Shown here: one piece after another, positions 9,003-44,756 of the stretch
How positions within the stretch are numbered: position 1 is the stretch's first letter
Layout: every line of letters begins with the position of its first letter
Source of the DNA: a virus
Virus record (IMG/VR): IMGVR_UViG_3300027963_004416
Coordinates: 32,001-96,000 of that record
DNA: 64,000 bases
Reading direction: 5' to 3' (one strand)
Made by a program: the position numbers and the translations under genes
The notes under the pieces: generated by a model
Database searches by the model: none
What the model was told of the DNA's origin: nothing
The model's input: the letters and a program-made list of their open reading frames with translations, nothing else

Positions 9003-9311
9003 ATGTTATACGCCGATATTAAATTAGTTGACGGTTCCGTTACGCGGAAGTTTTTCGAGGACCGTGCGAAGGGTTATGGAGATTTTGGTTATGTTAAGTA
9101 TCTTCTTCGCAAAGAGTTTGGAAAAGATTCCACTCTATTATCCATTGGTGCAATTCCTGACGAACGAGTTCACGGATGGACACCTCCTAAGCCTCCTATC
9201 GATTATGAGTTTGAGAACATGAGGCATACAAAGTTTGCATTCGGACGAACAACGAAAAAGGTCATCGGTTTCGTTCCTCGCGACGACGACTTCGACGAGG
9301 AAAGTGCTTGA
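9003..9311 (+). CDS. Hypothetical protein
   Basis: 102-aa ORF. Confidence 0.65.
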   Translation: MLYADIKLVDGSVTRKFFEDRAKGYGDFGYVKYLLRKEFGKDSTLLSIGAIPDERVHGWTPPKPPIDYEFENMRHTKFAFGRTTKKVIGFVPRDDDFDEESA

Positions 9312-9336
9312 CTTAATTCTCGTGCCACGCTAAAAT
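9308..9336 (+). promoter_or_regulatory. Early sigma70-type promoter
   Basis: TTGACT-17-TAAAAT, leader TGAGAGAAAGGAG. Confidence 0.85.
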
Positions 9337-9367
9337 TAGTTCAACATTGAGAGAAAGGAGATGTGAG

Positions 9368-9541
9368 ATGGCTAAGGTAAACGTGGTGTACAAGACGGTT
9401 CTGTACTTCCAGCAGCAGGTCGAGGTTCCAGAAGACCAGCTGGACAACATCAAGCAATACATTCTTGATAACGACAAGCTCAACTTCGTTGATGAGTTCG
9501 ACAGCGACACGACTATCCTCAGCTACGGGGTTGCCTCTTGA
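9368..9541 (+). CDS. Small early protein
   Basis: ATG behind the cassette RBS. Confidence 0.7.
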   Translation: MAKVNVVYKTVLYFQQQVEVPEDQLDNIKQYILDNDKLNFVDEFDSDTTILSYGVAS

Positions 9542-9566
9542 CTTTATTTCCTCACCAGGCTATAAT
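9538..9566 (+). promoter_or_regulatory. Early sigma70-type promoter
   Basis: TTGACT-17-TATAAT, leader GAATCATCATTGAGAGAGAGGAG. Confidence 0.9.
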
Positions 9567-9596
9567 GAATCATCATTGAGAGAGAGGAGAAGCAAG

Positions 9597-9803
9597 ATGA
9601 ACACGAAAGAAGCACTGGCAATCATAGAACAGATCCAAGCGTTCCTGCAGCAGCACGTCAACAAGGATGCTGACTTCATCCATGCGATGGAGTACACGCG
9701 AGACAACCTCGAGAGTTGTTATCAGGAAGAGAAGGAAGCGTATGCCCACCTGGTCGTGGAGATGCGCAAGATGTTCGCAGCAGTCGAGTCCATCAGGGCT
9801 TGA
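9597..9803 (+). CDS. Small early protein
   Basis: ATG behind the cassette RBS. Confidence 0.7.
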   Translation: MNTKEALAIIEQIQAFLQQHVNKDADFIHAMEYTRDNLESCYQEEKEAYAHLVVEMRKMFAAVESIRA

Positions 9804-9828
9804 TTTTATTCTCGCGCCAGCTTATAAT
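9800..9828 (+). promoter_or_regulatory. Early sigma70-type promoter
   Basis: TTGATT-17-TATAAT. Confidence 0.85.
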
Positions 9829-9860
9829 TAGTTTAACATGATGAGAGAGGGGAATGCATA

Positions 9861-10100
9861 ATGAAAGTATCTAAACTGATTGAGCTGTTAGAAGGCTTCG
9901 ATGCAGAAGCCGAAATCCATTTTACGTATGGATACAATGACTATTGGCGCACGCAGGTCGCGCCGGCTGTTCGTGATGTATTCGAGGGAGAGGTTGAGTA
10001 TAGTGAATATCACAGAACGGACAAGCTGCTTGAAGACTATGAAGGTCCTCAAGACGATGACGACGACCGAGTAGTGAGAAAGGTCGTAGTTATTCAATAA
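9861..10100 (+). CDS. Small acidic early protein
   Basis: 79 aa, D/E-rich. Confidence 0.75.
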   Translation: MKVSKLIELLEGFDAEAEIHFTYGYNDYWRTQVAPAVRDVFEGEVEYSEYHRTDKLLEDYEGPQDDDDDRVVRKVVVIQ

Positions 10101-10291
10101 CGATTTTTGCGTTTGCGCTTGACAGTTGCAGGGGCGGTGAAGGCACCTGCAACTCTCTTAGCGATAGCCTTTTTGGTGACCGGCAGGAGATTGGTCGCGA
10201 TTTTGCCAATCCCCCTGAGTCGTTTAGACGCAACAGAGAGCCCGGTCAAGTCACCGATCAGGCCTTCGTTGAACTCTCTGAATGTCTTCAT
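10094..10291 (-). CDS. Putative capsid-internal protein
   Basis: N-terminus MKTFREFNEG resembles the T4 internal-protein capsid-targeting sequence; basic C-terminus. Confidence 0.6.
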   Translation of the reverse strand: MKTFREFNEGLIGDLTGLSVASKRLRGIGKIATNLLPVTKKAIAKRVAGAFTAPATVKRKRKNRY

Positions 10292-10629
10292 GGTGCAGGG
10301 TCGTTTTCGTTAGCTGCATCCATTTCAGCTTTTTGGTTTAGCGCATGTGCAACGCCGGCCATAGCAGCTTCCTTGCCGGTTCCCGCAAGCATGATGCCCG
10401 AGAGCGTGCCGCAAAGGAATGTAGCAACGGGGATGATTAGCTCGAAGAACTTTTGATCGATGGGCGAAATAGCCCCAAGCGGTTGCGTTACAAAGATGAT
10501 TGAGTACAGGACCACGAACACGATGCCGATTAGCGTCAATGCCAGGCACATGCCAATGAAGAACTTCAGACGAACCATCAATTCTTCTGATGTATATCTT
10601 TCGCCTCTTTTAGATGAAACTTCGCTCAT
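10288..10629 (-). CDS. Two-TM membrane protein
   Basis: Two hydrophobic helices. Confidence 0.75.
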   Translation of the reverse strand: MSEVSSKRGERYTSEELMVRLKFFIGMCLALTLIGIVFVVLYSIIFVTQPLGAISPIDQKFFELIIPVATFLCGTLSGIMLAGTGKEAAMAGVAHALNQKAEMDAANENDPAP

Positions 10630-10829
10630 TTTTTAGCTCCTTGTTCACTAGGAAGAATCTGCATCACTTCCGGTTGTGATTCAAAAATATATTTAGGACA
10701 GTCCCGATTTATTTCACATACAGGCGCCTTACATTCAGGCTTTTTCCAATTCTCATTATCTTGGCAAGGATACCGAAACTCAGCATCACAGCCACTTAAC
10801 AATAGCATAGTTAACATTATTCTTTTCAT
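10626..10829 (-). CDS. Cys-rich lipoprotein
   Basis: MKRIMLTMLLLSGC lipobox; four further Cys; GGGGGA RBS. Confidence 0.75.
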   Translation of the reverse strand: MKRIMLTMLLLSGCDAEFRYPCQDNENWKKPECKAPVCEINRDCPKYIFESQPEVMQILPSEQGAKK

Positions 10830-10858
10830 ATTCCCCCCTTTTAAGTCAACATGCCTTT

Positions 10859-10866
10859 TATTTATA
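10859..10866 (-). promoter_or_regulatory. T4-type late promoter TATAAATA
   Basis: Exact consensus about 30 nt upstream of the lipoprotein start. Confidence 0.75.
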
Positions 10867-10876
10867 GAGAAAGAAC

Positions 10877-11056
10877 ATGGTAATATATTATGTAGTACTA
10901 ATGACGCTGTCCGGTTCCCAGAACCTAACGCTAAAAGAATTCTCCACACATACTGAATGTGAATCGTATATGAAGAGCAACCATAAACGATTAACTAAAG
11001 TGTATTATGTGGAGAACAAACAACGAATGACCGGATCAGGATGTAGAAACAAATAA
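10877..11056 (+). CDS. Hypothetical small protein
   Basis: 59-aa ORF read by hand. Confidence 0.4.
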   Translation: MVIYYVVLMTLSGSQNLTLKEFSTHTECESYMKSNHKRLTKVYYVENKQRMTGSGCRNK

Positions 11057-11057
11057 T

Positions 11058-11222
11058 ATGATATTGCTTCTCCTAATAGGATTGATAATACTAGGATGCA
11101 TGTTCGAAACTATATTGAGCATTGTGTTTCATATAGCTATCATTGCAATGCTCATGATGGGATTCGGAGTAATGGCAGCAGGAGTATACGCCCTATTGGT
11201 TACTCTGGTAGTTCTTAGCTGA
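11058..11222 (+). CDS. Very hydrophobic small membrane protein
   Basis: 54-aa ORF MILLLLIGLIILGCMFETILSIVF... Confidence 0.45.
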   Translation: MILLLLIGLIILGCMFETILSIVFHIAIIAMLMMGFGVMAAGVYALLVTLVVLS

Positions 11223-11357
11223 TTTATTAGCGAGTTTCATAGAGATATATTTTGTTAAACTGAATCGTCAAAATGTATATGGATCGCTATGATATAAGAG
11301 AATGCGTTCAATAGCGAGGTGCTGAGAAGGTCTCTGATATATTCTCTCGCTGTTTTT

Positions 11358-11436
11358 CTCTATGAAATACTCTATGAAATACTCTATGAAATACTCTATG
11401 CATTCCCCGCTATGAAACCGCTATGAAAACTCTATG
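11358..11436. repeat. Iteron-like 12-bp tandem repeats (CTCTATGAAATA x3 plus degenerate CTATG copies)
   Basis: Perfect units at 11358, 11370 and 11382; partial copies continue to about 11436; non-coding. Confidence 0.85.
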
Positions 11437-11571
11437 CATTATCGCGCCGCGCTACTATGTACAGCAAATGATTTGCAGCATTATACTACCGCAATAATCT
11501 TTCGCAAATCACTATCGCAAACAGATACAGCTAGTCATTAGCGCATTCAGCTTTCGCGCACATGATCTTCC

Positions 11572-11600
11572 ATTATGCCTGATCTCTGAAATTAAATCAA
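11572..11600 (-). promoter_or_regulatory. Leftward sigma70-type promoter into non-coding DNA
   Basis: TTGATT-17-CATAAT on the minus strand. Confidence 0.65.
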
Positions 11601-11691
11601 CTCAGATCAGTAGCGCAATTTGTTTGCGGTGCTAGGGCTGTGGGCCACCCGTCCCGTCCATCCCAGGCGTGCCTTTCGAATCATTAAAGAC

Positions 11692-11720
11692 ATTGTACTG
11701 GGGCGCGGAAAAAAAAACCA
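11692..11720 (-). promoter_or_regulatory. Leftward promoter divergent from 11744
   Basis: TGGTTT-17-TACAAT with the same TTTTTTCCGCGCC spacer as the 11744 promoter. Confidence 0.55.
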
Positions 11721-11743
11721 GCACTTTTGGGGCGAGAAAGTTG

Positions 11744-11772
11744 TTGACTTTTTTTCCGCGCCAGGATATAAT
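11744..11772 (+). promoter_or_regulatory. Early sigma70-type promoter
   Basis: TTGACT-17-TATAAT, leader GAATCATCATGAGAGAGAGGAG. Confidence 0.9.
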
Positions 11773-11800
11773 GAATCATCATGAGAGAGAGGAGTGAGAA

Positions 11801-12028
11801 ATGATCTACACGGAATCGATGATTGACCATATGATGGGCCTCGATGCACTGAGTATCGAAAAGGGCTTTCGCAATGCAGAGTACTTCGATATCAAAATTA
11901 AGTCAAGCAAGTTCGTTGGTCTGAATAGCGATGGCCATTTCGTATATAAGTGCGAGTTCTCAGAAGGAATGAAGCAAAACGTTTTCGCTACTCTTAACGA
12001 GAACTCGAAGCTGATGTGTGAATTTTGA
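11801..12028 (+). CDS. Small early protein
   Basis: ATG behind the cassette RBS. Confidence 0.75.
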   Translation: MIYTESMIDHMMGLDALSIEKGFRNAEYFDIKIKSSKFVGLNSDGHFVYKCEFSEGMKQNVFATLNENSKLMCEF

Positions 12029-12030
12029 GC

Positions 12031-12059
12031 TTGACTTAATTTTCGCGTCAGGATATAAT
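12031..12059 (+). promoter_or_regulatory. Early sigma70-type promoter
   Basis: TTGACT-17-TATAAT, same leader. Confidence 0.9.
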
Positions 12060-12087
12060 GAATCATCATGAGAGAGAGGAGAGAGAA

Positions 12088-12303
12088 ATGAGCAATCAAC
12101 GTGAGATGGTTCTTGACAGTCAGATGGATGTTCTGGATAGCGCAATCATCGCCATCGGTCGTGCGATTCAAGAACTGGATAGCGGTGATCGCTGGTGCGA
12201 TTTGGATACCAATGATGCGATCTTGAAGCTCGAAGCGATTCGTCAAGAACTGACAGATCAGTACATGCTTATCGAAGACGAATTGCGTCAAATCGAGGCT
12301 TGA
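12088..12303 (+). CDS. Acidic helical early protein, paralog 1
   Basis: MSNQREMVLDSQ...; aligns along its length with 12358. Confidence 0.8.
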   Translation: MSNQREMVLDSQMDVLDSAIIAIGRAIQELDSGDRWCDLDTNDAILKLEAIRQELTDQYMLIEDELRQIEA

Positions 12304-12328
12304 CTTTTTTTCCGGGCTCATGCATAAT
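12300..12328 (+). promoter_or_regulatory. Early sigma70-type promoter
   Basis: TTGACT-17-CATAAT. Confidence 0.85.
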
Positions 12329-12357
12329 GAACGTACATTAAGAGAGAGGAGTAGGAA

Positions 12358-12579
12358 ATGAACAATCAACGTGAAATGATTCTCGAAAGCCAATTGAGCA
12401 TCCTGACCAACGCAATCGTTGCATTGAGTCGCACGATCAATGAACTGGATGAAGCTGATCGCTTTCCGGATCTGGATACGAAAGAAGCTATCGCTAAACT
12501 CGAAGACGTTCGTCAGGATCTGGAAGATCAGGTGATGGGTATCGAAGAAGAGTTGAACGAAATCGAAGATAGCTTTTGA
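12358..12579 (+). CDS. Acidic helical early protein, paralog 2
   Basis: MNNQREMILESQ...DLDT.EAI.KLE. Confidence 0.8.
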   Translation: MNNQREMILESQLSILTNAIVALSRTINELDEADRFPDLDTKEAIAKLEDVRQDLEDQVMGIEEELNEIEDSF

Positions 12580-12589
12580 ACGAAGTCGC

Positions 12590-12618
12590 TTGACTTAATT
12601 TCCGCGGCAGGATATAAT
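12590..12618 (+). promoter_or_regulatory. Early sigma70-type promoter
   Basis: TTGACT-17-TATAAT, same leader. Confidence 0.9.
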
Positions 12619-12643
12619 GAATCATCATGAGAGAGAGGAGAGT

Positions 12644-12832
12644 ATGATGACGGAACTGAAACAAATCACGCTGATGCTTAACGCCGATGAAGCCGAGTTC
12701 TTGGCGCAGGCGTTGGAGATTCACGCAGACAAGTACGCAGGCAGAATCTCGTTTGTTGAGGAGCTTGATCGCTACGTGCGTTCGACTCTGCAGACGAAGT
12801 TCGATCCGGCTTTCGCGGAGGACGTAGAATGA
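12644..12832 (+). CDS. Small early protein
   Basis: ATG behind the cassette RBS. Confidence 0.75.
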   Translation: MMTELKQITLMLNADEAEFLAQALEIHADKYAGRISFVEELDRYVRSTLQTKFDPAFAEDVE

Positions 12833-12990
12833 CTGAGCAACAAATTGAGCTGGTCGTTGAGAAGTGGTTCGATCGCATCGACCGCCAGTATATGGGCAAC
12901 GAGTTATCCTATCAAGACTACATGGCAGAGGTCGAGGCCGTGCGCCTCTGGGCTGATGCAAAGTATGCTGAGATGACGGCGTTGCATTAA
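12829..12990 (+). CDS. Small early protein (MTEQQIELVVEKWFDRID...)
   Basis: 53 aa; GGAGG RBS; ATGA overlap. Confidence 0.7.
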   Translation: MTEQQIELVVEKWFDRIDRQYMGNELSYQDYMAEVEAVRLWADAKYAEMTALH

Positions 12991-13010
12991 TTTCCTCAGG
13001 AAGCTACAAT
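12982..13010 (+). promoter_or_regulatory. Early sigma70-type promoter
   Basis: TTGCAT-17-TACAAT, leader GAAGTACATTGTGAGAGAGGAG. Confidence 0.8.
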
Positions 13011-13039
13011 GAAGTACATTGTGAGAGAGGAGAAAGACG

Positions 13040-13207
13040 GTGTACGATGCAGATGGATGGGATAGCTACGCCGCGTACGCTCATGAGCAGATGCTCGAGC
13101 TGATGTTCAAGGAGTCGGACGATTGCGTGGAGTTTGTCAACAAGTGGATCCAGGATCAGCTGGCCACGGCGGTTCCTACGGAAGTGTTTCAGGAGATTGA
13201 GCAATGA
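13040..13207 (+). CDS. Small acidic early protein
   Basis: GTG start behind the cassette RBS, 55 aa. Confidence 0.65.
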   Translation: MYDADGWDSYAAYAHEQMLELMFKESDDCVEFVNKWIQDQLATAVPTEVFQEIEQ

Positions 13208-13398
13208 GTGCAATGAGTGATCTGGATATCGTCAAGCAAGAGGTCTTCGAGTTCTTGGATGACCTGCGGTTGAGCGGTGAGACCAACATGTTTGGAGCTG
13301 CACCGTACATCGTCGAGGAGTTTGGCATGAACAAGGCTGAGGCGCGCGTCCTGTTGAGTGCATGGATGCAGACGTTCAGCGAGCGTCACGCAGCGTAA
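13204..13398 (+). CDS. Conserved small phage protein (LRxSGxTNMFGA motif)
   Basis: FLDDLRLSGETNMFGAAPYI pattern. Confidence 0.8.
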   Translation: MSAMSDLDIVKQEVFEFLDDLRLSGETNMFGAAPYIVEEFGMNKAEARVLLSAWMQTFSERHAA

Positions 13399-13400
13399 GA

Positions 13401-13587
13401 ACCGACCAGGTGGTGTACGGCTGCCAAAGCCACCGGGTGACTATGAGCAGGGTCGAGCCTGGGACATGACCCAAAAACAGGCAACGATTTCCCCCGGTGG
13501 CCTCGGCTCCTCTCTCACTCTCCGCAGAGGCCACCACCCAACCTGTCGCCCGCGTGCGACCCCGGACCAGTAACCGGGACCTTTTCT
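13401..13587 (+). ncRNA. Candidate structured antisense RNA
   Basis: Intergenic; four hairpins plus an H-type pseudoknot; loop CTCCTCTCTCAC complementary to early-gene leaders; ends in a CCCGG/CCGGG hairpin and T-run. Confidence 0.55.
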
Positions 13588-13589
13588 GG

Positions 13590-13618
13590 TTGCGTTTATT
13601 TCCTGAAGACGTCATAAT
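13590..13618 (+). promoter_or_regulatory. Early sigma70-type promoter
   Basis: TTGCGT-17-CATAAT, leader identical to 12982. Confidence 0.8.
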
Positions 13619-13648
13619 GAAGTACATTGTGAGAGAGGAGTGAAAGAA

Positions 13649-14020
13649 ATGCAAGCAACCTACACCTTCGACGAAAACATCGTCAGCGACCTGCACAAGG
13701 ATGCCTACGGCTTTCGTCCGAGCCAGTCGTTCTGGGAGTACTGGACAGGTGCCGACGACGACCGCAAGCAGCGGATCTGGGACGACCTGCTGGGTGCCCT
13801 GGATCGTGAGATGGAGTACCAGCGTCAGCGTGAAGCTGAGGCCGTGGAGGATTTCGATGAGATGCTCGATCGACTGTACCGGGCCGGTGCGAAGGACTTC
13901 ACGATGGCGATCAAGTGGGCACATGATGCGCACGATACGGACGGGGACGATGAGTACCTGGAGTACACCCTCGGTCTGCCGTTCAACCACATCCGCAAAG
14001 CACGCGAGGCCACGAAGTAG
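13649..14020 (+). CDS. Acidic early protein (SDLHKDAYGFRP motif)
   Basis: Recurrent phage motif; cassette RBS. Confidence 0.8.
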   Translation: MQATYTFDENIVSDLHKDAYGFRPSQSFWEYWTGADDDRKQRIWDDLLGALDREMEYQRQREAEAVEDFDEMLDRLYRAGAKDFTMAIKWAHDAHDTDGDDEYLEYTLGLPFNHIRKAREATK

Positions 14021-14049
14021 TGGCCTTATTTTCGTGTGGCGCCGATAAT
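14021..14049 (+). promoter_or_regulatory. Early sigma70-type promoter (degenerate)
   Basis: TGGCCT-17-GATAAT, leader GAATCATCAAGAGAGAGAAAGAGGAG. Confidence 0.65.
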
Positions 14050-14082
14050 GAATCATCAAGAGAGAGAAAGAGGAGTAGGGAA

Positions 14083-14172
14083 ATGAAAGAACTGATCTTT
14101 GTTGCATTCTGCGTTATGGGTGGTTACGGTCTGCATGACATGGTTATCACTTTGAGCAAGCTGGCTCACTAA
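14083..14172 (+). CDS. 29-aa hydrophobic peptide
   Basis: MKELIFVAFCVMGGYGLHDMVITLSKLAH behind the cassette RBS. Confidence 0.6.
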   Translation: MKELIFVAFCVMGGYGLHDMVITLSKLAH

Positions 14173-14184
14173 GGAGAGAGAGAA

Positions 14185-14457
14185 ATGAGTCTAGAATGGG
14201 AATTGAGCTGTTACGGTGTTGCTGAGAAGCACCTCGAAGAGACCTTCAAGTCGTCGTACGTGCAGATGGTCGGTATCGACATGTACGTGGCAGGCATCAT
14301 GAGTGACTGTCAGGAGATCCTGGAGCACTATGATGACAAGGAGGGCAAGGAGGCTGTCCGTCAGCTCCTGAATCGGGCGAAGTACTATCTGAGCCGTCGC
14401 TATGATGAGCAGCGTCAGGCTGCTGATGAAGACTTCCGGAAGCGGAGGGTTGCATGA
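14185..14457 (+). CDS. Hypothetical early protein
   Basis: AAGGAG RBS, 90 aa. Confidence 0.75.
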   Translation: MSLEWELSCYGVAEKHLEETFKSSYVQMVGIDMYVAGIMSDCQEILEHYDDKEGKEAVRQLLNRAKYYLSRRYDEQRQAADEDFRKRRVA

Positions 14458-14663
14458 TGGAGTACAGTGTCGAGTTGTATGAGGACCCGGACCAGTGGTC
14501 CTTCTGGGAGGTGATCGAATGGGGTCCTCATCCACATCCAGAAGACACCGTACGTCGACGGACCGGCATGATCCTCCATCGTGTCCGTGGCAATGACTGG
14601 GTATCTGAAATGGCTGCTCGTGAGTGGCTACACATCTACAAAAAGGAGAATGGAATTGAATAA
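14454..14663 (+). CDS. Hypothetical early protein
   Basis: ATGA overlap. Confidence 0.65.
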   Translation: MMEYSVELYEDPDQWSFWEVIEWGPHPHPEDTVRRRTGMILHRVRGNDWVSEMAAREWLHIYKKENGIE

Positions 14664-14745
14664 TGGTGACATGTACGTGGGTTACGCCCTCTGGTTCGTG
14701 GCAGGCTTCCTGCTAGGCTACATCGTGTTAGGTGCACTAGTATGA
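14650..14745 (+). CDS. Small membrane peptide
   Basis: MELNNGDMYVGYALWFVAGFLLGYIVLGALV. Confidence 0.5.
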   Translation: MELNNGDMYVGYALWFVAGFLLGYIVLGALV

Positions 14746-14885
14746 TCTACTTACAGTACGTAGTGACACTAGTATGTGCACTGCTGGTGCCGGTGTTCGT
14801 AGTGCGTGGTGACACGTACCATGCCGTCATCTTCTCCATCATGGCCGGCGTCAACCTGGTCATGATACTGGACCGTCGTACATGA
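14742..14885 (+). CDS. Small two-TM peptide
   Basis: 47-aa hydrophobic ORF, ATGA overlap. Confidence 0.5.
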   Translation: MIYLQYVVTLVCALLVPVFVVRGDTYHAVIFSIMAGVNLVMILDRRT

Positions 14886-43973: not shown

Positions 43974-44153
43974 ATGATTATCTGTGTTTGTAGAGAAATT
44001 TCGGATAACGATTATTCTTCTGACGAGGAACTTAAAAATCGTATCATGCAGAATGATTTTAAATGTGGTATTTGTCAGACTAAATATATTATGAACGATG
44101 AGCTTTTATCTGTACAACCAGAAGCTTATCAAAAGAATTGCTGTATGAAGTAG
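43974..44153 (+). CDS. Bfd-like [2Fe-2S] ferredoxin
   Basis: MIICVC...CGIC (CxC...CxxC); AGGA RBS; TTGATT-18-TATAAT promoter at 43926. Confidence 0.65.
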   Translation: MIICVCREISDNDYSSDEELKNRIMQNDFKCGICQTKYIMNDELLSVQPEAYQKNCCMK

Positions 44154-44444
44154 AAGGAAAGGTGTTCTGGACGCGAGTTCGATTCTCGCCATCTCCACCA
44201 TAAGCGTATTGCCTGGTATGAGTGCCTATAGGCTTAATCAGAGTCCAATAAGTAATACGCTTATGATGGGGATGTCAAGGTTTCGACAGGGCAATGAGTA
44301 CAGATATGGACAGCACGTCAGGCGATCGACGTTAATGAAGCAGAACTAGTAAACGCAAACGATAGCGATTACAACATGGCTCTTGCTGCCTAACAGCTAA
44401 GACCGGAGTCTTGATAGTTGAACTTGGCAACAGAATCAACTATC
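44140..44444 (+). ncRNA. ssrA: Permuted two-piece tmRNA
   Basis: Acceptor piece with T-arm GCGAG-TTCGATT-CTCGC and CATCTCC-A-CCA (ends 44200) precedes coding piece GGGGATG (44268; G3.U pair); tag ANDSDYNMALAA* at 44355-44393; intervening hairpin 44199-44265; 5' boundary approximate. Confidence 0.93.
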
Positions 44445-44468
44445 ATTTATTTCTATGAGGCTAAAAAT

Positions 44469-44756
44469 ATGACAAAAGACGAGATTTATAATCTAATTAT
44501 AGTAACAATGAAGAAGGATTATGATATCGATATTAGCGGCATGCCTGCCAATACACCTATATCTACTATTAAGGAGATGGCTCCAAAGCTAGACTCGTTG
44601 GAATATCTTCAGTTTATTTTTGGTATGGAAGACAAGACGGGCATTGAATTACCTGAAGGCAGCCCGGTGCCAGAGACAATAGGAGATATTTTAGATGCTT
44701 TTGTCACAGCTTTGGGAAATAGACTTAATATATCAGTTAATTATAAGATGGATTAA
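44469..44756 (+). CDS. Acyl carrier protein
   Basis: LDSLEYLQFIFGMEDKTGIELP with phosphopantetheine Ser; TIGDI C-terminal helix; GAGG RBS. Confidence 0.85.
   Translation: MTKDEIYNLIIVTMKKDYDIDISGMPANTPISTIKEMAPKLDSLEYLQFIFGMEDKTGIELPEGSPVPETIGDILDAFVTALGNRLNISVNYKMD

Follow-up and report, generated by a model that had tools for sequence, protein, structure and literature searches.

A covarying structured RNA at the end of an early gene array in an uncultured freshwater phage presents a loop complementary to early Shine-Dalgarno leaders

Introduction

To our knowledge, post-transcriptional shut-off of early genes in large lytic phages is known mainly through proteins such as RegB, the T4 endoribonuclease that inactivates early messages class-wide via their GGAG ribosome-binding sites. 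RNAs that control phage genes by antisense pairing include c4 of phages P1 and P7 and the CI RNA of P4, which belong to the Rfam C4 family and come from temperate phages, where c4 controls one immunity operon. In bacteria, CpxQ and SroC are small RNAs (sRNAs) derived from 3′-UTRs that share the terminator of the parent mRNA, and RNAIII and RsaE are anti-Shine-Dalgarno (anti-SD) sRNAs with C-rich loops. In the icaR mRNA of Staphylococcus aureus, a UCCCCUG motif in the 3′-UTR pairs with the SD of the same mRNA (PMC3868564), and composite terminator/promoter motifs of the PeSL type are known from T4-like phages (PMC2839356, PMC4122927).

Here we describe a structured RNA element in the genome of a large, tailed, uncultured freshwater phage. 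The window, the whole stretch of DNA that was analysed, has 64,000 nucleotides and corresponds to bases 32001-96000 of a 145.7-kb IMG/VR virus record that is about 85% complete. The element occupies window 13405-13604 on the plus strand, is non-coding and has 61% GC. As in icaR, an anti-SD pyrimidine motif in a 3′-UTR is complementary to the 5′-terminal SD region of one and the same transcript, here 13507-18 to 13021-32 (12/12) within predicted transcript limits, and an icaR-like outcome is predicted, with the initiation complex blocked and a double-stranded nuclease substrate formed. Unlike icaR, to which it has no sequence relation, the element belongs to a phage early operon and holds its 12-nt motif in a large hairpin loop, and the leader is common to at least seven cassettes, so that one 3′ end could reach many messages.

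The downstream end of the element is built like PeSL: the hairpin at 13570-93 overlaps the -35 at 13590, an arrangement found again at 14006 and 9782, so that a stem-loop lies over the next early promoter repeatedly between small early ORFs, and relatives differ by swaps at such joints. In contrast to PeSL motifs, which are short joints, a 190-nt RNA of P1, pseudoknot and P4 with an anti-leader loop is additional here. With c4 and CI RNA, whose loops pair with the downstream ribosome-binding region of the operon, the element would share co-transcription of a structured phage RNA with its target; unlike them it has a different fold, matches no Rfam model, and would address an early cassette family in a large, probably virulent phage. 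The position of the seed upstream of the terminator of the parent mRNA recalls CpxQ and SroC, and a pyrimidine loop masking the SD recalls RNAIII and RsaE, but the targets here would be the phage's own sibling messages. The purpose would parallel that of T4 RegB, which is a protein nuclease, whereas the element would use RNA pairing. An RNA supported by covariation, with exact antisense to a common early leader, would offer a simple form of feedback through RNA on all genes of one temporal class and, if true, would extend to phages the pairing of 3′-UTR with 5′-UTR known from icaR.

Results and Discussion

Genome context and the early cassette array

The genome has an overall GC content of 38.5% and carries genes for ribonucleotide reductase (RNR), primase, baseplate, tail and endolysin; the phage is large and probably virulent. 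The label "T4-like" in the original prediction stands only in a loose sense, through the large size and the RNR, primase and baseplate genes. At window 44091-44484 (plus strand) the phage encodes a permuted (two-piece) tmRNA (Rfam tmRNA_permuted 141 bits, beta_tmRNA 108 bits) with the tag peptide ANDSDYNMALAA by ARAGORN, and this tmRNA hints at a betaproteobacterial-type host.

Window 9300-14100 is an array of small early cassettes, each composed of a near-consensus sigma-70-type promoter (TTGACT-N17-TATAAT or TTGC[AG]T-N17-[TC]A[CT]AAT), a short leader with GAGAGAGGAG at its end, and between one and a few small ORFs. The cassettes usually abut, the stop codon of the upstream ORF lying in or adjoining the next -35; the exception is a 190-nt gap at 13399-13589, the GC peak of the region (61-64%). 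The GAGAGAGGAG motif occurs seven times on the plus strand, each time as a leader (9580, 11785, 12072, 12342, 12631, 13023, and 13631), and once reversed, at 13507-13516; shuffles predict 0.09 occurrences. In window 12700-14800 the early cassettes have 50-61% GC against 38.5% for the genome, which suggests a GC-richer source for these cassettes and the structured RNA. Tandem 12-bp repeats (CTCTATGAAATA, 3-4 copies, with an inverted partial copy) lie at window 11358-11440 and 11208-11245, in an ORF-poor block adjoining divergent promoters. The promoters and leaders concerned are:

11785-12640, plus strand: four more leaders with the 10-nt core (11785, 12072, 12342, 12631), all within the terminator-free array of promoters; a fifth is found at 9580
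12982-13010, plus strand: early promoter TTGCAT-N17-TACAAT of the operon ending in the element, assigned by sequence and by repeat family D1/D2
13021-13032, plus strand: leader/SD GTGAGAGAGGAG of the element's own operon, which the P4 loop complements over 12 nt (-24 kcal/mol for the duplex, 0.5 for opening)
13590-13618, plus strand: next early promoter TTGCGT-N17-CATAAT, from the promoter repeat survey
13629-13640, plus strand: leader/SD GTGAGAGAGGAG of the next cassette, the second 12-nt target (duplex -25.5 kcal/mol)

The element had been proposed to be made from the early transcript of the 12982 promoter, and it does lie downstream of this promoter, at the 3′ end of the early array; we infer a transcription start of the operon near 13018. 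A search of the plus strand from promoter 11744 to 13561 found no terminator-like site, and RNAs started at any of five promoters (11744, 12031, 12300, 12590, and 12982) are for this reason expected to have the element at their 3′ end; each would contain one to five leaders and one anti-leader. Together with the terminator-like hairpin that follows, this would place the element on the same RNAs as its targets. The two 12-nt matches are in the 5′ leader of the last operon of the array and in the first cassette beyond it, whose 122-aa gene starts at ATG 13650.

The small proteins on either side received no function or name from Pfam, PHROGs or Atlas. The 64-aa protein upstream (window 13204-13398, motif NMFGAAPYIVEEFG) is one of a family that occurs widely among uncultured phages; a homologous-protein search with the 122-aa protein returned none.

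Fold, strand, and covariation

All stems and motifs named in the original prediction were found where it had placed them, and further parts could be added. From 5′ to 3′, the element consists of:

13409-13434, plus strand: P1 hairpin, 6 bp (13409-13414/13429-13434), conserved loop ACGGCUGCCA; 4 compensatory pairs in variant L007
13450-13482, plus strand: candidate H-type pseudoknot with S1 13450-54/13468-72 (GGGTC/GACCC), S2 13457-61/13478-82 (GCCTG/CAGGC) and an A5 loop at 13473-77; S1 changes
13483-13495, plus strand: linker AACGAUUUCCCCC, the module boundary; variant L049 diverges right after the C run
13496-13535, plus strand: P4 hairpin, 9 bp (GGTGGCCTC 13496-13504 / GAGGCCACC 13527-35) plus a 2-3 bp extension, loop of 16-22 nt; compensatory changes in the L006 type
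13507-13518, plus strand: anti-leader CUCCUCUCUCAC in the P4 loop, identified by complementarity; core 13508-13516 invariant in 4 variants
13545-13560, plus strand: P5 hairpin, 5 bp (GTCGC 13545-49/GCGAC 13556-60); stem invariant, loop varies
13561-13578, plus strand: P6 hairpin, 5 bp (CCCGG 13561-65/CCGGG 13574-78); invariant, competes with the terminator hairpin
13570-13603, plus strand: terminator-like hairpin (13570-77/13586-93) with a U-rich tail GUUUAUUUCC, a PeSL-like unit whose 3′ arm holds the -35 of the next promoter; 3 one-sided changes, all of which keep pairing

In three IMG/VR contigs and several JGI metagenome contigs, relatives of the element are flanked by the same pair of genes and give four distinct full-length variants; with the partial L049, five distinct variants come from lake viromes and metagenomes. 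Roughly 15 DNA runs contain parts of the region. In these relatives the proposed structure is paired in 98% of cells, with six pairs changed on both sides, a level reached by 0/500 shuffles; slid controls are 26-49% paired (four full-length variants). The compensatory pairs are distributed over P1 (4), pseudoknot S1 (1), and P4 (1, plus two repairs). Most extensive is the change in L007, where the P1 stem is wholly rewritten from GGTGGT/GCCACC to CATCGG/CCGATG and is 100% paired, around an unchanged ACGGCUGCCA loop. The P4 stem of the L006 type has a compensatory C-G to U-A change, a G.A mismatch that became A-U, and a C-G to U.G change; with changes at 6/40 positions, P4 is the most changed segment in this type, and every change is paired, wobble, or outside the core. 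The stems of P5 and P6 show no variation among the variants.

The pseudoknot as such is only probable because S2 never varies in the five variants; S1 has one compensatory change (U-A to A-U) and one wobble change (G-C to G.U), both seen in L007 and L049. A nested alternative offered by RNAalifold is broken by the same U-A to A-U change. We also dropped a pairing of 13423-40 with 13490-507 and the outer helix of the minimum free energy (MFE) fold, both of which are lost in L007. The MFE of the whole element is unremarkable (z about -1 on either strand), and that of its parts reaches z -3.6 for P4 alone and z -3.4 for 13488-13604. Substitution rates in the element equal those at third codon positions, and the relatives have diverged too little for a rate-based demonstration of purifying selection.

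The structured RNA proposed for the plus strand is thus borne out by covariation in relatives and by G.U pairs. Wobble pairs are found on the plus strand only, and since the complementary strand would have A.C in their place, folding is assigned to the plus strand. We therefore give almost no weight to the idea that the locus is a relic inverted cassette, a minus-strand gene, or an element acting as DNA (origin or recombination site), for which one can point to a mechanical minus-strand ORF at 13376-14107 and to the mobility of cassettes. G.U pairs would be A.C in DNA as well, 1-nt indels among near-identical relatives break every frame and exclude an ORF across the element on either strand, no nearby minus-strand promoter was found, the reversed SD has no start codon at a working distance, and homology to the cassettes stops at exactly 12 nt. 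A minus-strand promoter or ORF pointing to a relic cassette, which the original prediction had named as evidence against itself, was thus sought and not found.

Rfam covariance models (at the gathering score for the window, and to an E of 10 for 13300-13700) and ARAGORN gave no match to the element, whether to riboswitch, ribozyme, tRNA-like, or sRNA families; the Infernal comparison included the C4 antisense RNA model, the family to which the element had been likened, and the lone Rfam matches nearby are at chance level (E 4-5). The element has no protein match, and none by blastn in the phage GenBank collection. P1, the probable pseudoknot, and P4 make up a new structured RNA family without an Rfam relative. 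DNA pattern scans with AAAAACAGGCAACGATT and with the P1 loop gave just chance matches beyond the known relatives, and a scan with the P4 loop gave three known relatives only; a match among genome contigs, in L168 (one record with L047), falls within a long Rhodospirillaceae MAG ORF and was set aside as chance. More distant phages with homologues of the 64-aa/55-aa proteins (L008-L016, L172) carry neither the element nor the GAGAGAGGAG leader, and promoters or genes directly follow these homologues there.

At window 14006-14027, another terminator-like hairpin overlaps both the stop codon that ends the 122-aa gene and the promoter that follows it. A link between this hairpin and P4, with which it has 7-8 nt in common (GAGGCCAC/GTGGCCT), was rejected, as the two show no joint change in the L006 type.

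Modular composition

In the metagenome contig L049, the 64-aa gene, P1, the pseudoknot, and a linker (AACGAUUUCCCCCC) are followed directly by a different promoter cassette, and P4, P5, P6, and the terminator are absent. A homologue of the 122-aa gene is found 2 kb further on, behind another promoter, and homology to the window resumes within its leader (GAGGAG|TGAAAG), which marks the recombination point; the leaders of L049 are heterogeneous. L007 has a different layout, in which about 65 extra nucleotides, with two small hairpins, separate P1 from the stop codon of the 64-aa gene (L007:935-1003). From the layouts of L049 and L007, the region is composed, at the level of sequence, of at least two separable modules exchanged at cassette joints. 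On the minus strand of the L049 contig, positions 11522-8300 form a mosaic of module A and then other cassettes, with a conserved AACAAAGTAGTTGCAC promoter joint.

The anti-leader loop

The loop sequence CTCCTCTCTCAC is perfectly complementary (12/12) to two leaders, those at 13021 and 13629, as originally proposed, and its 10-nt core is complementary to five more early leaders (9580, 11785, 12072, 12342, and 12631). Complementarity ends sharply at 12 nt, and the flanks have no similarity to any cassette. When dinucleotide shuffles of the element were compared with ten leaders, a complement of at least 12 nt arose in 2/3000 and one of at least 10 nt in 51/3000. Over the ensemble computed for the element, the unpaired probability of the loop bases is 0.6-1.0, and opening would cost 2.5 kcal/mol for 13507-18 and 0.3 kcal/mol for 13508-17, to be set beside -20 to -25.5 kcal/mol for the loop-leader duplexes and 0.3-3.8 kcal/mol for opening of the leaders. 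The large P4 loop is in this respect a conserved antisense to the early leader/SD with predicted accessibility.

The leader is invariant across all carriers of the element. Two substitutions fall in the 12-mer of relatives, C13507U (L006) and A13517G (L007), and both preserve pairing as G.U with the unchanged leader; co-variation of loop and leader has no variable material because the leader is identical in all carriers. In sequence terms these loop features favour selection on pairing, each point being weak individually, with P4 represented by only four distinct variants, all of one clade. When the 22-nt loop region was run against the whole genome with RNAduplex, the result lacked specificity, leaders making up 3/12 of the top matches. 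For the P1 loop, exact complements of 10-11 nt at other genome positions are as frequent as expected by chance.

The P4 loop is a low-complexity CU sequence, and the main alternative, possible if somewhat unlikely, is that the element serves only as a structural 3′ end, in termination and exonuclease protection as part of a PeSL-type joint, the anti-leader being a coincidence of the CU loop. The overlap of the terminator hairpin with the next -35, repeated at 14006 and 9782, would be expected of such an end and agrees with the composite terminator/promoter motifs of T4-like phages (PMC4122927); recombination swaps modules, module A occurs without P4, and the MFE of the whole element is ordinary. 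Against this, the other cassettes here are joined without a 190-nt spacer, keeping a loop of 16-22 nt open above a covarying stem would be expensive for a hairpin whose role is structural alone, the 12-mer has a shuffle p of about 0.001, and the substitutions preserve pairing.

Composition has a second possible meaning. Module B has 39% C and 24% G, the GC skew is negative here only, and the stretch is untranslated and lies behind the last gene of the operon, all of which would suit a loading site for Rho (rut-like, C>G) or for a protein such as S1 or another RNA-binding protein on the pyrimidine loop. We regard this as quite improbable: rut sites are unstructured, whereas module B folds strongly with covariation, and the exact 12-nt register with the leader would go unexplained.

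Proposed function

The reading we prefer, tentatively, is that of a 3′-UTR antisense module that would mask the early SD leaders in cis and/or in trans. The early promoter array 11744-13600 would have the element as its structured, untranslated 3′ end, built from two separable modules. Module A (P1 and the probable pseudoknot), tied to the 64-aa gene, would most likely stabilise or delimit the RNA. Module B (P4, P5, and P6/terminator) would offer CUCCUCUCUCAC in its open 16-22 nt loop to the purine leader/SD, with 12 bp to its own 5′ leader and that of the next cassette and 10 bp to at least five others. Within the infected cell, the loop-leader duplex would block 30S binding and might create an RNase target, and the outcome would be a negative feedback on early translation, whether in cis (3′-UTR to 5′-UTR), in trans, or both. 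Judged from sequence, pairing in cis with its own 5′ leader, as in icaR, may fit the 12-nt match at least as well as pairing in trans. Several observations weigh against the masking of leaders: L049 keeps module A without P4, which is thus dispensable there, the loop is of low CU complexity, the duplex scan is not leader-specific, and the P4 variants are few and from a single clade.

The sequence AGAGAGGAG also pairs with the CUCCUUUCU tail of many 16S rRNAs, which the P4 loop resembles, and the long purine leader may be explicable through ribosome binding alone. In effect, the loop imitates the 16S tail. Speculatively, and we think this unlikely, the phage may use the element to imitate the 3′ tail of 16S rRNA, through a stable RNA released where the transcripts of the multi-promoter array end together, which out-competes ribosomes for all early "super-SD" leaders; the element would then be an RNA-only timer that closes the early phase, and one example of anti-leader hairpins that would form an undescribed class, widespread among large uncultured phages. 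If true, this would make it an RNA counterpart of T4 RegB.

RNA-library evidence and a possible processed RNA

A lake metatranscriptome contig spans 13358-13615 at 100% identity, which, with DNA carry-over possible, is to be read as presence in an RNA library only. Contig depth is 7.3 over the element against 2.6-6.6 for its neighbours, a measure that is unable to rank RNAs. The contig ends at 13402/13409 (two other runs) and 13030/13626 (others) were rejected as RNA ends; they coincide with repeats or strain variation.

The original prediction went further than masking by a 3′-UTR and saw a discrete small RNA, processed and stable, that would accumulate and, acting in trans, switch the whole early class off at the passage from early to late, perhaps with an effect on host SD sites too. 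The layout is that of an sRNA derived from a 3′-UTR, with a seed loop, P5, and a terminator hairpin with U tail; five promoters feed one 3′ end, and the 10-nt core matches seven leaders. From its sequence, a GA/UUU in the linker 13483-13495, at the module boundary, resembles an RNase E site, and a cut there could free an RNA of roughly 115 nt from P4 to the terminator. We nevertheless hold such an off-switch to be improbable: the best match (12 nt) is limited to the two flanking leaders, P4 is absent from one relative, the contig depth is near that of the neighbours, and occlusion of host SD sites would depend on about 5 nt only.

In two studies, contigs from RNA libraries connect 14143 back to 13660, 52 other letters intervening (regions at window 13660-13719 and 14097-14143), which indicates a strain with a different cassette order.
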